Part shown: piece after piece, positions 2,713-49,590 of the stretch
How the letters are laid out: every line of letters begins with the position of its first letter
Numbering within the stretch: position 1 is the stretch's first letter
Assembly: GCA_001662655.1 (NCBI GenBank)
Contig: KV460208.1
Source of the DNA: Pseudogymnoascus verrucosus
Lineage: Eukaryota
Length of the DNA: 64,000 bases
Reading direction: 5' to 3' (one strand)
The notes under the pieces: model-generated
What the model saw: the letters and a program-made list of their open reading frames with translations, nothing else
Told to the model about the DNA's origin: nothing
Databases searched by the model: none
Translations under genes and position numbers: made by a program

Positions 2713-4100
2713 TATAGATCATGCATTGGAAGTTTGATTGTGGGGACGGAATGAGAGATGGGGAAGAGGGTAGATCATGCATTGGGAGTCTTCTTGGGGG
2801 GGTTTAAGATCACAATTAGATCTTCAGAATATAGATCATGCTTTAGAAAGAAAAACACAGAAATAAGATCACACCAACACCTACAGATCACACCTCACAC
2901 CTCACAAGTGATAAAAACAACCCACAAGTGGAACCAACCCACCACCATATCATGTGCCTTCCCCCCAATCACGTGTCAACCCAACATCCTCACTTCCCCA
3001 AAATAGGGGGTCCAATTCGCCACTACGGCACTCCATTTACCGGTCTGCTGGCCATCTCATAATACAAATCAGACATAGACGGCAAGGAGCGAACAAAACC
3101 TGGTGTGGAAATTTGAGGCGACTTCGATATCTTTCGATGCCGCGATCTGGCCCGGTGGCGAGTTAAGCCACACAACCCACTCCAACCCACTCCACGACGG
3201 TAGACGGTAAACGGGAGATGGTAGACGGGTTCGTTCTTATCCCCCAGCGGAACGGCTTCCATGCAGGCAGGACTTCTTGGCCAAGATGGAGACTGGTAAG
3301 CGGCGTTGTGTGGTGGGAGATCGGGGTGTGGTGTGTGTGGTGGTGGAGACGGAATCTGTCGTGCTGCCTGCTGCAGTGTGCTGGGATGGGCTGTACTGTA
3401 CGGTGGTGGGTTGGTGGTACTGACCCATCCGGCAGGAGTTACTCTAGGGGGGGTGAGGGGCGAGGGCGAGGGGGAAGGAGTGGGAGCGATGGGTGCCGAG
3501 AGTTTGTATGCACCTACTACTACTGTACATAACATACGTAGATGTGTTTGTATCGGTTTCTTCCTCAAAGGATCAGGGAGTCTCGCCGAATGATGTATCT
3601 ACCACCGCCGCTGTTATCGATCACTTGCGGAGTCCGTAGGCAACGTTGACGTGACTACTCTACCGCTACCGGCGATGGATAAGGGCACACTCACCACCAC
3701 GCCACGACAGTATGAGATGGAGTGGACGGAGGCAGGCCTGTCGCCTGGCCGGGTAAGTACTGGATGTGACATTTGTTGCCGCGGGGCGAGGGCGGGATGG
3801 GTTGGGGTTGGATTGTAAGTACTTCCTCACAGTACAGTAGAGTACAGTACACCTACAAGTATCGTAGTCAGCCAACCCAACTGTAGACTGCTGGAGCGCG
3901 GTGGTGGTGGTAGGGTGGAGATGGATGGGATGGGATGGATGGCACGCCCCCTTCTAGGTCTCACAACGGACAGCGGTAGTAGGAGGTGGTGGTGGTGGGT
4001 GACACCGAACACCGAGTGAGCGTTGGTTTGTTGGGATTAACTTTTTATATGTTTTGTAGTTTGTAGGGTAGCACTGTATTACTATATTATTATATTACCA

Positions 4101-13031: not shown

Positions 13032-14983
13032 ATGCCATCCTGCCGTGGTATAACGTTGTCGATAACGTCGGCTTCGGATTCGAAAGTATATCCAGAGTTC
13101 CCTCACCCAGAAACCTCCCAGTTCCAAAACAGCGAATCATTTGCTCTACCAGGTAACAATACCAAGGCGACGTCGTCATTGCCTAGCAAAGAGAAACCAG
13201 GAAACAATGCTCCCGACTCATCCAACCCCTATGCTTCCGTCTACATTCCATCCTTGCCTGGTAAGCATAACGTCGTTCTATGTTTTAAGCGTTCCTACCT
13301 AACACCCTTCACAAGGAACCCGATTTGTTGTGCAGTATTCCATAGACCCACCACATACAGACGGCATAAACGTTTTCCTTAAGCTGTTTATGAACGGTCG
13401 ACACGTCACGTCATGGGGAATAGATCCCAGAACCATGCCGGTGGGACGGGCTATGTTGGGCCTTTTCGAAGCCGACAAGAAGCTGAAGTCGAAAGCATTG
13501 ATACCTAATCCAGCAGAAACCAAACCGTTCTATTTCAATGATCAGAAGCAAGACGTTTCGGCAGCTGAGAATGGTGGTGTAATTGAAGTCAGGGTCTTCA
13601 GAGCTTGTGGAAAAAGGCGTCGGGGTGCAATCCTTGACGTATTCAGAGGTGGTCAGGATAAGTATGGAATTGAGTAAGTTTATGCAGCAAGTTCGTTTTA
13701 ATTTTGAGTACTTACATAAATTCAGGTTCAAGTCCTCTGGGCTTCTTGAAAAGAGCAGGTACAAGTATTTCGACTGGCTCTTGGAGGACCCAAAAGATGA
13801 CCCCTTTGTGACGTTCCGCTTCCACTACCGCAGCTGGGACTCTCTCGAAGCCTTACAGCTTGTTCCTGGGATGTGCAACCGTGAATTATTGCCAGCATTC
13901 TCCATAAAGAACAGCCTCAGCACACCCAACCTCTCTGGAGCTAACCCCACCCTAACTGGCTCTGGAGTTATCAGTAGATTCAACAAAGCCACAACTAACA
14001 ATGGACCAGAGCACCGCAACCGCTCACGGAGTCCGGGTGCTTCATTGCCAAATAAAAAGATTGAGAACACCATCTTTGGTCAAATGGTCGCCAAAGACAC
14101 TGCTCTTTCACAGGTCCAGTCCAAGCAGGCGACACAGCCAGATGTTAATAAGCTAAAGAAGAAGTTACAGATTCCCACATCGATATTTTCCACCGCAAAC
14201 AAAGAAAAGTGGATAAGCCAGGAGAATCTCCAGCTGGACGTAAGGCCTCTCCCAGAGCCTCCCGCAGGACAGTCTCATGGTAGAAACCTTTCTGCGTCTT
14301 CAATGGCATTCTCCATTGCGCCGTCTTTACGGTCTTGGGCAGATGGTGATTGGAGTGAATCCCCTGAACCAGTATTATGTGTTGCAGCCGAACTACAAGT
14401 CCTCCACAGCCTCCAGCTTAACCAGTATGGGCGCAAAAAGTCAATCTTCGATGATGATAGTACTACCTCCAGTGCTAGCGATCACGATGATGCGTACGGC
14501 GATATTGACCAATCCTTTCAACTTTCTCTTTCTGCACCACCGGTCTATCCGAAGAATAATATGTCTCCGGTTAAAAGGTCTCCAGTCAAAAAGCCAACAG
14601 CTCGCGGTCTCCCTCTTTCGACCAGTGCTATCTTTCCTCCTCCAGCCATGAGACGGGATAGAATGCGGCGCATCCGTTTCAAGGACCAAAAGCGAGGTTC
14701 CAACTCCCCTACGGAAGGCTATGAAGCTGACCATGAAAGCCTCCCTAAATATCGTGGCTCAGGTCGTCCTAGCACCAGCGGTCTGCCTGCCAACATGAAA
14801 TTATCTCAGGTTCCACCTCGGCTACTTGCTGTCAACTCTGGTTTCAGCTTCGAGTTCAACAACCCCTGTGAAGCTGATGGAAGTAGCGAAGGTAATGAGG
14901 ACGCCACTCTCAGAATCAAAAGCGGAAAACCTGAAGAGCGCAGCGGTGAAGGCCCCAGAAACCAAAACAGAGAAAGGAAATGA
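13032..14983 (+). CDS. Hypothetical fungal protein: globular N-terminal domain plus disordered Ser/Pro-rich tail, 3 exons
   Basis: Introns 13261-13315 and 13674-13725 join three ORF-track segments in frame (PEFPHPE, SVYIPSLPG, FLKLFMNGRHVTSWG, GGVIEVRVFRA, FRFHYRSW). Confidence 0.7.
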
Positions 14984-16317: not shown

Positions 16318-16883
16318 TTTTAAAGACTTGTGGAGGAGAAAGACGAGAGTGGAAAGATTTGTGAAGAGAAAATGATGTATCAGTCTGGCTAGCGGAAATT
16401 CGATGGGGAGAGAGCCTCTTCTTATAGTTCTGAGCCACCGTTCTCCTTTGATATTCCTTCCTGCTCAATAACTCTTCTAGCTTACATGATCTAGAGACGT
16501 CATTACCCCTCCCTCGGCATTATCAACACTGATTAGAAATCAACTAATAATCCTACTGCATCCTACCACATACGCGGACGGGGTCTCTATTGGACCGATT
16601 ATGACCATCATGTTGTAGAACTGAAGATTATATCTCTAAGCCAAGGTTTCAAGCTTGCATGTCGAGTATATAATGTTTATTGTGCTTAGTTTAGTACTGC
16701 CGTCAGCATTTAACACAATACGTCACGTGATGATCGGCCATGTATGCGGGCGCGGCGACGCTAGCAGCACTAATGGCTTCATGGTATTTCTAAAAAGCTT
16801 CGCCTTCCATCCTGAACCCATAATCTAACTTTATCCAACTTCATCACTACGTCTCTATCCTCGAACGATATCGATAGCACAAG

Positions 16884-19130
16884 ATGGCGTGGCGTAACCA
16901 AGGCACAACAGGCTCAAACAACATTCCTTTGGGAACCAAACGACGCTTTGGAGATGACAATAGTCCGTCAGGTGGCAATCACGGGGACTATAACCAGCCG
17001 CCTTCGTCAGGCCATGGCGATGGCTACAGGCGTGGCCGTAGCCCGGAAAGACGTAAGTGTGAACTCGACTCCTGTTTTACAAACCCAAATCTAACTGTGC
17101 TTGAAGGCCCTGAGCCAAATAATGATGCAGGCAAACCGGTCCGCAAGAAGAGAAACCGCTGGGGCGATGCAACCGACAACAAAGCTGCAGGTCTGATGGG
17201 GCTTCCGACCGCCATCATGGCGAATATGACCAGCGAGCAGCTTGAAGCATATACGCTCCATCTTCGAATTGAGGAGATTAGCCAAAAGCTCAGAATCGAT
17301 GATGTCGTGCCAGCCGACGGCGACAGGTATATTTGTCCCACTTGCGGCATATCTGAACGAATAACTGACATGAAACAAAGATCACCGTCTCCAGCACCAC
17401 AATACGACAACTTCGGTCGCCGTGTTAATACCCGCGAGTACAGATACAGAAAGAAGCTGGAGGACGAGCGCCATAAGCTGATCGAGAAGGCCATGAAGGT
17501 CATTCCTAACTACCATCCGCCACAGGACTATCGCCGCCCAACTAAGACACAGGAAAAGGTCTATGTGCCAGTCAATGATTATCCAGAGATTAATTTCAGT
17601 ATGATTGCTAACCCTCTAACCTTTCTAACACTCTTAACCTCCATCCCCTCCCCCTTTTTCATTGCCGTGTGGCATTGCGTGCTGCATTCTAACCTCAGGG
17701 TGCGACGCCTTGCCATCACTAACCTGTCAACCACGTTTTGCTCTAAACTTTTGACCATAAACTAACACTTAGCTTTTTTTTCCTACTAAAGTTGGCTTAC
17801 TTATCGGCCCTCGTGGAAACACGTTGAAAAAGATGGAGACTGAATCGCAGGCTAAAATCGCCATCCGTGGCAAAGGATCCGTGAAGGAAGGAAAAGGCCG
17901 TTCGGACGCCGCCCACACCAGCAACCAGGAGGAGGATCTCCATTGTTTAATCATGGCAGACACCGAAGAGAAGGTGAACAAGGCCAAGAAGCTGATTCAC
18001 AACGTCATTGAAACTGTAAGTGTTGCCTCACATTTTTTTCCAATTCAGCATCTAACAGTTTATAGGCCGCATCTATTCCGGAAGGCCAAAACGAGCTTAA
18101 GCGCAACCAACTGCGTGAGCTTGCGGCCCTTAACGGTACGCTCCGTGACGACGAGAACCAAGCTTGCCAGAACTGTGGTCAGATCGGCCACAGGAAGTAC
18201 GACTGCCCTGAGCAGCGCAACTTCACTGCAAACATCATCTGCCGAGTCTGTGGCAACGCTGGTCACATGGCCAGAGACTGCCCGGACAGACAGCGTGGCG
18301 CAGATTGGCGCAACGGGCCTCCTGCCCCTGGAGGAGGCCCTGGCGGATTTGCTGGCCGTCCTGCAGCTGGCCGAATTGGCGCTGGCGATGCAGTTGATCG
18401 TGAATACGAGGTAAGTCAATTCTTGAATTTCCAGTATGCTTAGCAACAACTAACAAACCTTTAGCAACTTATGCAAGAATTATCTGGTGGTGCTCCTGCA
18501 CCGAATGGCGAAGCACCCCAACGTATCGAAGCTGGCCCAGGTAGTTATGACCAAGGACCTCCTGCTGATGCCGGCGATGTCAAGCCATGGCAGCGTGGCC
18601 CGACTGGTGCTGCCGCCCCATGGCAACAGCGGGGCCGCGGCGGCGATGATTACAACTCGCGTGACCAGGCACCTAGCGGCGGTGCGGCCCCATGGGCTCG
18701 GGATCGTGGCGGACGCTCTGATGACAGAGACCGCCGCGGTGGTGGTGACTACTATGGTGGCCATCATGACAACAGCTACGGCGCCCCGCCGCCACCACCA
18801 CCTGGTGGTGCTGCTCCTTGGCAGTCGGCTCCCCCACCTCCTGCTGCTGGCCCAGGCTACGGCGGATACGGTGGCTACGCAGCACCAGGACACGGCTCTG
18901 GTTACCCTCCTCAGCAAGCAATGGGTGCTCCTCCTGGGCTTGGCTCTTCAGGTGGTGCTCCACCACCACCAGGCGCTCCTCCTGGACTTAACGCTCTCTT
19001 AGCGCAATATGGTGGAAGCCCTCCTCCACCTCCTCCGTCTGGAAGCGCGCCACCCCCACCTCCTCCTGGTTCTGCTCCTCCGCCTCCTCCACCAAGCGAT
19101 CAACCACCGCCACCACCACCAAGCTATTAG
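16884..19130 (+). CDS. MSL5: Branchpoint-bridging protein / splicing factor 1 (KH-QUA2, two CCHC zinc knuckles, Pro-rich tail), 6 exons
   Basis: Introns 17053-17106, 17327-17380, 17599-17791, 18016-18065, 18411-18464. Motifs: [47 protein letters not shown]2 [16 protein letters not shown], and knuckles [14 protein letters not shown] and [14 protein letters not shown]. Confidence 0.97.
17607..17791 (+). promoter_or_regulatory. Array of branch-point (CTAAC) motifs in intron 3 of the BBP gene; putative autoregulatory element
   Basis: Six CTAAC copies plus one TTAAC in a 193-nt intron. The motifs are seen directly; the function is inferred. Confidence 0.6.
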
Positions 19131-20089
19131 ACTACAGACTAGTAGCTTGCGGGACAAAGGGACGACTAACACGTCGCATAGGTGATTAACACTGACAGAA
19201 AGACTGATTCTAACTGATGCAGCTCTGGCTTTAAGAGTTCAATGGATATTTTTGTTTCGCGTTGTTTCTAAATTAGTAGTAATTCGAATTCAACGTTGTA
19301 TTTTTATTTCTCGAAATAGCTCGATTTGCAGCTAAATATAAGCATAAATCACATCGTGACAGTGTAATATACAGTATGACAGGCTAATCTCACATGGTGC
19401 GAAGGCCAGGGAACACATCCACCAACATGCCAAGGATGGTGTAATCCAGAGAAATGTCTCCGTTTGTATCTGACCCTGATAGTCTAAATCCAAGACCTTT
19501 CGCTCCAGGTTTGAGCGTGTATGAGCGAAGCTGGAGTTGCTGTGATCGGCCGCCCTAGGATGATGGGGTACTATACAGTGCAGTAGTCCCCGAAACGGTC
19601 CCACCAGAATCAGTATACATTGCCCTGAATCCCTACTGTGATAATTTCTCAGACGAATCCCACAAGTTTTGTCTGATGTACATTATCCATAGATTGTTAA
19701 CAAGTATCATGATGGTTTAAAGACAGTCCGCATCTCTCCCAGGCTGTGGCTGGTGGCTCCTTCCTTGGAAGTTGCGGCTCCTCGGTAGGCTGTACCTTCC
19801 ATACTAGGGGTTTAAAGGCACGGAAGGCAACGCACCTTCCCACTTTCCCACTCCTTAGTACCATTCCATTACCCTTGTACTTACAAGTTCATTGGAAATA
19901 CAACGCGAATTGTTTGATACGGCGAGTTAAAGAAACACATAGATTCCGTTTCAAAGGCTCTGAGTCCCTGGAAACGGCTGCTTGCAGATCGCCCAGAGCC
20001 TCAACCGACGCGTTAATCCAGCCTCCCTCATCTTGGGCGGTCTGGGGCTGAGAACTAGGCTTCGTCGACACACCAACGGAGACGGATCC

Positions 20090-49493: not shown

Positions 49494-49590
49494 GGGGATA
49501 TGGTTTAGTGGTATAACGCTTCTTTAGCACCTGATCATCTGATCAAGTACGATTTAGAAGAGGTCCGGCGTTCGATTCGCCGTTTCTCCA
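49494..49590 (+). tRNA. tRNA-Ala(AGC) with a 25-nt intron (49530-49554)
   Basis: Acceptor GGGGATA/TTTCTCC-A with the G3:U70 alanine identity pair. D arm GGTTTAGTGGTATAAC; anticodon stem CTTCT/AGAAG with AGC at 49526-49528; T arm CGGCG-TTCGATT-CGCCG. Mature length 72 nt. Confidence 0.93.

Follow-up and report, generated by a model that had tools for sequence, protein, structure and literature searches.

The 64,000-nt stretch of Pseudogymnoascus verrucosus DNA analyzed here (contig KV460208.1 of assembly GCA_001662655.1; hereafter the window) carries a gene for BBP/SF1/Msl5, the protein that is first to contact the branch site, and the third intron of this gene (17599-17791) is crowded with copies of the branch-site word. 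Comparison of orthologues identified this intron as a real, strongly selected cis-element. We moderately favour the interpretation that it is a conserved, regulated retention intron, which sets the output of BBP by negative feedback. It is plausible, given the sequence, that BBP senses its own level via decoy branch sites. We infer that BBP binds these sites, that binding acts in the repressive direction, and that the retained transcript is subject to nonsense-mediated decay (NMD) or nuclear detention.

The BBP gene and its third intron

The gene (16884-19130; this and all features of it described below lie on the plus strand) comprises six exons from ATG to stop, which were defined from the exon translations and domain matches. 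The SF1 helix-hairpin family (PF16275) matched exon 2 (1.5e-12) and exon 3 (4e-24), the two matches jointly covering profile positions 2-114. A KH domain of the KH-I_KHDC4-BBP type (PF22675) was found in exon 4 (3.1e-20), and two stretches of exon 5, downstream of the KH-QUA2 region, were recognized as zf-CCHC knuckles. The solved structures closest to the KH exon were those of yeast Msl5 (4WAL; 6e-21) and human SF1 (1K1G; 2e-19), in which KH-QUA2 binds the branch-site word. An earlier analysis of the DNA made without database searches (the sequence-only reading) had named the gene BBP/SF1, and this combination of domains and nearest structures bears the name out: by these matches the gene is a BBP/SF1/Msl5 orthologue, and its product is predicted, from homology to 1K1G and 4WAL, to bind the UACUAAC branch site.

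The five introns occupy positions 17053-17106, 17327-17380, 17599-17791, 18016-18065 and 18411-18464. Introns 1, 2, 4 and 5 are 54, 54, 50 and 54 nt long, respectively, and intron 3 is 193 nt long, so that the boundaries and lengths of the sequence-only reading (one 193-nt intron among introns of 50-54 nt) were reproduced. Intron 3, which is in phase 1 and splits the KH domain, starts with GTATGA at 17599 and ends with AAG at 17791; its removal joins ...EINF to IGLLIGPRG, and the corresponding joint (17598^17792) was seen in a contig of the metatranscriptome X7 described below.

All seven branch-like motifs claimed earlier for this intron were found at their sites: GCTAAC at 17607, TCTAAC at 17615, 17624 and 17688, CTTAAC at 17633, and ACTAAC at 17718 and 17761. 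This corresponds to six sense-strand copies of CTAAC (17608, 17616, 17625, 17689, 17719 and 17762) plus one TTAAC. A further branch-like word, TACTAAAG at 17784-17791, had escaped the sequence-only reading and overlaps the productive 3′ splice site. The intron contains exactly three AG dinucleotides (G at 17698, 17772 and 17791), as claimed. Its retention leads to a first in-frame stop at the TAA at 17763-17765, and, by eye, splicing to 17698 or 17772 would lead to the TGA at 17750-17752 or the TAA at 17785-17787, respectively; these three predictions of the sequence-only reading are therefore correct.

The array of motifs is real and lies far above the level expected by chance. The whole window contains 76 copies of CTAAC on both strands, and no 193-nt stretch outside the BBP gene contains more than 3 of them. 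Dinucleotide shuffles of intron 3 contained 0.66 copies on average and 4 at most, and the observed number of 6 was reached in none of 5000.

The sole close CTAAC pair of the window outside the BBP intron belongs to a group of three plus-strand copies within 59 nt at 13941-13999. This group was considered as a second element and rejected; by eye it reads as coding sequence, and it is therefore probably a chance cluster.

Introns 1 and 2, whose length is a multiple of three (54 nt each) and which lack in-frame stops, leave one open frame across 16878-17765. This frame extends from upstream of the ATG through introns 1 and 2 into intron 3, and a prokaryote-style gene caller would report it as an open reading frame (ORF) of 295 amino acids.

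Persistence of intron 3 among orthologues

The exon-4 peptide was used to search metagenome contigs and hit 582 stretches; 411 of them were confirmed, and the best 80 loci were kept. Exons 3 and 4 were both present in 77 of these 80 (loci L056, L061 and L065 end too early), and in 74 of the 77 they were separated, at the same codon position, by a long intron (137-264 nt) with 2-6 copies of CTAAC. The remaining loci were L075, the only array-less orthologue, whose intron 3 is 97 nt long, starts with GTAAGT and has no CTAAC, and L043 and L064, both without an intron at this position.

The loci formed 56 clusters at ≥0.90 and 44 clusters at ≥0.75. One representative of each 0.90 cluster was taken. 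With L064, which has no intron, L075, whose intron is short, and L069, whose intron contains an N, excluded, this gave a set of 53 lineages. Identity to the window at third codon positions of exons 3 and 4 ranged from 0.40 to 0.66, with a saturated pairwise mean of 0.52 (L003, whose exon 3 runs off the contig, was dropped from this comparison). Given this divergence and the number of clusters, the loci are, by sequence, many separate and deeply diverged lineages.

In the first 1068 nt of L003, exon 3 is matched twice, at 1-102 and at 835-1050, the second copy coming after exon 4; this is likely to be an assembly wrap-around or a tandem artefact.

Across the 53 lineages intron 3 carried a mean of 4.64 CTAAC copies versus 0.50 in shuffles, and the observed count was reached in 24 of 10600 shuffled sequences. 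The words are strand-specific, as the reverse complement of CTAAC did not occur once in the 53 introns, and they stand at fixed distances from both splice sites. When the window and the 80 loci were scanned together (727 kb of strand sequence), CTAAC pairs with a spacing of up to 8 nt occurred 92 times, and 90 of these pairs fell in intron 3. The flanking introns of the orthologues (introns 2 and 4; 45-79 nt) had means of 0.36 and 0.50 copies, respectively; they are unconserved, and intron 4 is absent from 13 and intron 2 from 3 of the 53 representatives. Intron 3 has been lost in one of 56 lineages and is degenerate in another.

The lineage that lost the intron is represented by a 36-kb genomic contig (L064, 1500-2800), in which exons 3 and 4 are fused and introns 1, 2 (approx. 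102 nt) and 4 have been kept, so that nature provides an exact deletion of the element. The degenerate case, L075, shows an unusual 3′ untranslated region (3′UTR; 2900-3290): GTGAGA occurs right at the stop codon and is followed by three acceptor-like modules with two branch-like words each (CTGACaCTGAC...cttag; ACTAACaagggCTGACttgctag; ACTAACaccggCTAACttgctag). In this fungus the sensor may, to judge from these words, have been relocated into a 3′UTR intron. More branch-like words are present in the 3′UTR of the window gene (19131-19225), namely GACTAACAC at approx. 19165 and TCTAACTGATGCAG at approx. 19209, and a GGTGAT in the same region could mark a small 3′UTR intron. Neither a branch-site cluster nor an intron proved to be conserved in the 3′UTRs of all orthologues; these regions were heterogeneous, and several apparent stop codons of orthologues lie inside a further C-terminal intron.

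Conserved anatomy of intron 3

The 5′ splice site of intron 3 is weak (GTATGA, 17599-17604, with A at +6 and A at exon position −1). Its consensus across the 53 lineages is GTAYGR, and T at +6 was found in none of them, compared with 35 of 47 for intron 2 and 32 of 40 for intron 4. It is followed from intron position +9 by the proximal array (17607-17638), consisting in the window of GCTAAC, TCTAAC, TCTAAC and CTTAAC spaced 8-9 nt apart. A CTAAC starting inside the first 10 nt was present in 52 lineages (at +9/+10 in 51), at least two copies occurred within 30 nt in 48, and at least three within 45 nt in 22. The mean pairwise identity of the splice site with the beginning of the array (17599-17620) was 0.78, versus 0.52 at third codon positions. 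The alignment of orthologous introns, which the sequence-only reading had proposed as one check of its idea, has thus shown the core of the array to be kept where synonymous sites are saturated. The fourth word, CTTAAC at 17633, does not belong to this core; with a per-column conservation of 0-0.2 it is specific to the lineage of the window.

Behind the array lies a pyrimidine tract (17639-17664). In the 53 lineages, the 25 nt past the array were on average 0.80 pyrimidine (at least 0.8 in 32), compared with 0.59 in the rest of the intron, and the next AG occurred a median of 43 nt further on. Array and tract together look like a 3′ splice-site region devoid of its AG. The minimal size of a lariat places words at +9 to +40 too near the 5′ splice site for branching, and the proximal words are therefore unusable as branch points.

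The middle of the intron can form a hairpin (17667-17719; dG −22.8, z −3.2), the 3′ arm of which ends in a central branch-site word. Over the 53 lineages the z-score was below −2 in 15 and below −1 in 31, and among the 15 sequences of the clade of the window we found an 18-pair stem with compensatory changes in 5 pairs. Inside the hairpin, TCTAAC is followed by CAG (17687-17698). The sequence-only reading had listed TCTAAC 17688 among the motifs and CAG 17698 as a candidate internal acceptor; the per-column conservation of this stretch is again 0-0.2, so that it is specific to the lineage of the window. As an internal acceptor CAG 17698 was likewise rejected, being lineage-specific and having no contig joint to 17699, and neither of the two alternative acceptors proposed earlier (CAG 17698 and TAG 17772) is used by any RNA-derived contig.

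The central word itself (ACTAAC, 17718-17723) lies approx. 70 nt upstream of the 3′ splice site. A CTAAC located 55-100 nt from the end of the intron was found in 49 of the 53 lineages, with a mean pairwise identity of this site of 0.72. Further downstream, a conserved TTTTGAYCAT box (17749-17758; identity approx. 0.56) precedes the distal site. Covariation of this box with the 5′ splice site was considered and discarded, because lineages with GTACGA still have GATCAT (by eye).

The distal site is an extended branch-site word, ACTAACACTTAGCT (17761-17774), and contains the TAG at 17770-17772. This is probably the working branch point, with the branch A at 17765 and a distance of 26 nt from there to the 3′ splice site. 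ACTAAC was present 20-37 nt from the end of the intron in 50 of 53 lineages, the identity of the site was 0.84, and in 23 lineages it read exactly ACTAACACTTAG. An AG follows the distal branch A by no more than 9 nt (about 6-7) in 50 lineages, and the productive acceptor is located 13-21 nt further on. This acceptor lies within the branch-like word TACTAAAG (17784-17791), at the joint seen in the contig. Intron 3 ends with ACTAAAG in 19 lineages, CTAACAG in 14 and ACTAAG in 4, so that a branch-like acceptor word is present in 37 of the 53; its mean pairwise identity was 0.67, compared with 0.22-0.33 for the spacers of the intron. A word that occupies −7 to −2 cannot serve as the branch point for the AG it touches.

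A stable hairpin in mid-intron, and the resemblance of the first three words to an 8-9-nt tandem repeat, might suggest that the intron is kept as the host of a small nucleolar RNA (snoRNA), a small-RNA hairpin or a DNA-level element, the CTAAC words being debris of tandem duplication. We regard this as very improbable. The sequence of the hairpin varies between clades, and the CTAAC words are the best-conserved columns of the intron; the words occur on one strand only and at fixed distances from the splice sites. The intron was also rejected as a snoRNA or other non-coding RNA host by an Rfam search of 17599-17791, in which no family matched at E values up to 1.

Selective retention of intron 3 in RNA

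Two sets of contigs bear on the splicing of the gene. The contigs of X1 are more than 99% identical to the window and, since introns 2 and 4 have been spliced out, are derived from RNA. In these contigs intron 3 is colinear with the window, at a depth of 13.4 (exons: 12.8), and none of the contigs listed has the spliced joint 17598^17792. X7 is a soil metatranscriptome containing a relative with 95-99% identity, in which introns 2 and 4 occur only in the spliced form. For intron 3, a retained contig (17569-17821) and a spliced-junction contig were both found, each at a depth of 16, with the exons at 39-46. The intron of the retained contig differs from the window at six positions, all of them outside the CTAAC words. 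Together, the contigs of X1 and X7 show joints for introns 2, 3 and 4 and none inside intron 3. A check for a stwintron revealed no internal joints in the contigs, which drop rare forms, and by eye no AG|GT.

Some of the metagenome loci resemble mRNA as well. Removal of intron 3 alone from L029 and L066 yields single ORFs of 584 and 616 amino acids, respectively. L028 lacks introns 2 and 4, both of which are present in L080, whose intron 3 is very similar, and L028 is thus probably a further mRNA-like contig that retains intron 3. All introns have been removed from L043, which clusters with the intron-bearing L052.

Retention places an in-frame stop within intron 3 in 52 of the 53 lineages; there is none in L020, where the length of the intron is not a multiple of three. 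The earlier claim that retention is unproductive thus extends well beyond the window. The autoregulatory-splicing idea of the sequence-only reading as a whole has survived in part: the conserved array, the retention of intron 3 only and the premature stop speak for it, while the acceptors at 17698 and 17772 are used by no contig and two of the words are lineage-specific.

The retained transcripts might also reflect mere inefficiency, if the words served to recruit BBP, and thereby the U1 small nuclear ribonucleoprotein (snRNP), to an unusually long intron. BBP is bridged to U1 through Prp40, none of the 53 lineages has an optimal 5′ splice site (T at +6 in 0/53), the hairpin brings the central site closer, and a spliced product exists, all of which suits such an aid to splicing. 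We nevertheless judge it to be quite unlikely: it leaves unexplained both why a weak, long intron has been kept for so long amid short neighbours that were lost and why the productive acceptor lies within a branch-like word in 37 of 53 lineages. In addition, positive feedback would make the control of an essential factor unstable, and the retained form is as abundant as the spliced form in X7 and dominant in X1.

A possible feedback mechanism

The arrangement described above suggests how negative feedback by BBP could operate. The weak 5′ splice site is backed directly by a module that resembles a 3′ splice site and would act as a decoy: it has two to four words of the branch-site type, followed by a pyrimidine tract, and lacks a usable AG. 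Beyond this module follow the hairpin, the central branch site and the strong distal branch site, and the productive acceptor lies under a branch-like word. The best-conserved extra words stand where they can occlude or trap splice signals and cannot act as such signals. The factor acting in trans would most likely be BBP, probably with its U2AF65/Mud2 partner at the pyrimidine tract. Excess BBP would fill the decoy words that adjoin both splice sites, and the filled decoys would lock U1 in a dead-end complex or mask the acceptor, so that intron 3 would be retained, the reading frame would end in the intron and the output of BBP would fall. In its most specific form, in which the mock 3′ splice site 9 nt behind the weakened 5′ splice site and the word at the acceptor allow BBP, together with its U2AF partner, to titrate its own pre-mRNA into a stable retained pool, this proposal is offered only tentatively. 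Transcripts of this intron-retaining pool may stay in the nucleus until they are spliced on demand.

Several points weigh against this interpretation. The branch-site word is also recognized by U2 small nuclear RNA (snRNA), and the sensor therefore need not be BBP. BBP bridges to the U1 snRNP in commitment complexes, so words beside the weak 5′ splice site could aid splicing. The element is dispensable in some fungi, as L064 lacks the intron and that of L075 is short and array-less. The taxonomic breadth of the orthologue set (the best 80 of 411 loci) is inferred from sequence divergence alone, and the controls for enrichment were the window, the flanking introns of the BBP gene (40-47 lineages), the shuffles and the 80 loci, not introns genome-wide. 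The RNA evidence consists of assembled contigs, in which depth is a poor measure of isoform ratio and from which rare forms are dropped. Two large raw-read RNA runs with the species label of X1 (X23 and X24) had zero reads on 17200-18100 and thus provide no test; this means that the label includes another organism or that the BBP gene was not sampled.

The double use of the branch-site word, as the pairing site of U2 as well as the target of BBP, makes a general sensor of spliceosome capacity conceivable. In this case the words would be decoys for the U2 snRNP or another branch-site reader and would report the activity of the early spliceosome. The conservation (0.84) of the distal site ACTAACACTTAGCT as a word longer than BBP is known to need agrees with such a sensor, and according to the accessible text of PMC6097662 and PMC12017769, detained introns with decoy sites in other splicing-factor genes answer to general factors. 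We nonetheless consider a general sensor unlikely, as the element resides in the BBP gene itself, close CTAAC pairs are nearly confined to intron 3 of this gene (90 of 92 in the 727 kb) and the presence of a factor's own motif in its own gene is the usual signature of autoregulation.

If negative feedback by BBP does operate, it would be a self-sensing circuit built from core splice signals only, by which filamentous ascomycetes set the level of their branch-site reader, and a clean natural case of splice signals reused as decoys where they are unusable as signals. No account of how the level of BBP/SF1 is controlled was found in the literature searched, and with intron 3 a candidate homeostat of early spliceosome assembly in fungi can be tested directly. 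The intron could also serve as a compact module for reporters responsive to splicing factors. For annotation, it explains why intron 3 is often left unspliced in gene calls and transcript assemblies.

Relation to known systems

Autoregulatory unproductive splicing is a property of splicing-factor genes of the SR and hnRNP classes. In yeast, the products of RPL30, RPL22 and YRA1 bind their own introns near the 5′ splice site and block splicing. By the mechanism proposed here, BBP would likewise act by binding close to the 5′ splice site of the intron in its own gene; the three yeast proteins differ from it in that they recognize protein-specific RNA structures, not splice-signal words, and are not spliceosome assembly factors.

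Decoys have been implicated in intron retention elsewhere. Intron 9 of caspase-2 reportedly contains a decoy 3′ acceptor. In the text available from PMC6097662 and PMC12017769, detained introns of SF3B1 and OGT are described as carrying decoy splice sites or decoy exons. The array of the BBP intron is comparable, as an intronic element resembling a splice site for which we propose engagement of early factors and resulting retention; intron 3 does contain splice-signal-like elements that are not used productively (the array from +9/+10 and the pyrimidine tract). The decoys of caspase-2 and, as far as the two sources describe them, of SF3B1 and OGT are whole cryptic exons or acceptors deep in long metazoan introns, whereas that of BBP would be an AG-less module of branch-site words and pyrimidines in a fungal intron of approx. 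190 nt, where it starts 9 nt past the 5′ splice site, with a further word over the real acceptor.

Tandem UACUAAC repeats of the vertebrate RNA Gomafu/MIAT have an increased affinity for SF1 and slow down splicing in vitro, according to the portion of PMC3116199 that was available. Both there and in the BBP intron, clustered branch-site words are not used for branching; from the same portion, Gomafu provides them in a non-coding exon as a sponge in trans, while the BBP gene has them in cis, within one of its own introns and at fixed distances from the splice sites. Competition between SF1 and QKI at tandem ACUAAC branch sites (accessible parts of PMC11483029 and PMC13004596) likewise involves close ACUAAC words as a regulatory unit and a STAR/KH reader, which for BBP is predicted. 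In that case, as presented in those parts, the sites for which QKI competes are genuine branch points close to the 3′ splice site of a target gene, and the accessible part of PMC11483029 does not describe self-regulation of SF1.

The closest fungal parallel is srp2 of Neurospora, whose long intron 3 is retained and stabilized in an NMD mutant, as stated in the accessible part of PMC4379411. There, too, a splicing-factor gene has one long, partly retained intron with an in-frame stop and a conserved position. The same part of that article says that the sequence of the srp2 intron is not notably conserved among Aspergillus, in contrast to the BBP intron, where modules built from the recognition word of the encoded protein are conserved at the nucleotide level; furthermore, the srp2 product is an SR protein, whereas BBP is the reader of the branch site. 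Autoregulatory intron retention is thus already known, and a BBP intron with an array of the protein's own word looks to be undescribed. In this respect we agree with the sequence-only reading, which knew of no such element: neither self-regulation of BBP/SF1 nor this intron was found to be described in the full-text literature searched, a body of text that lies outside most subscription journals and supplements.

Other features of the window

A single Rfam match was obtained in the window, corresponding to a tRNA gene of 97 nt at 49494-49590 (48.9 bits), which presumably contains an intron.

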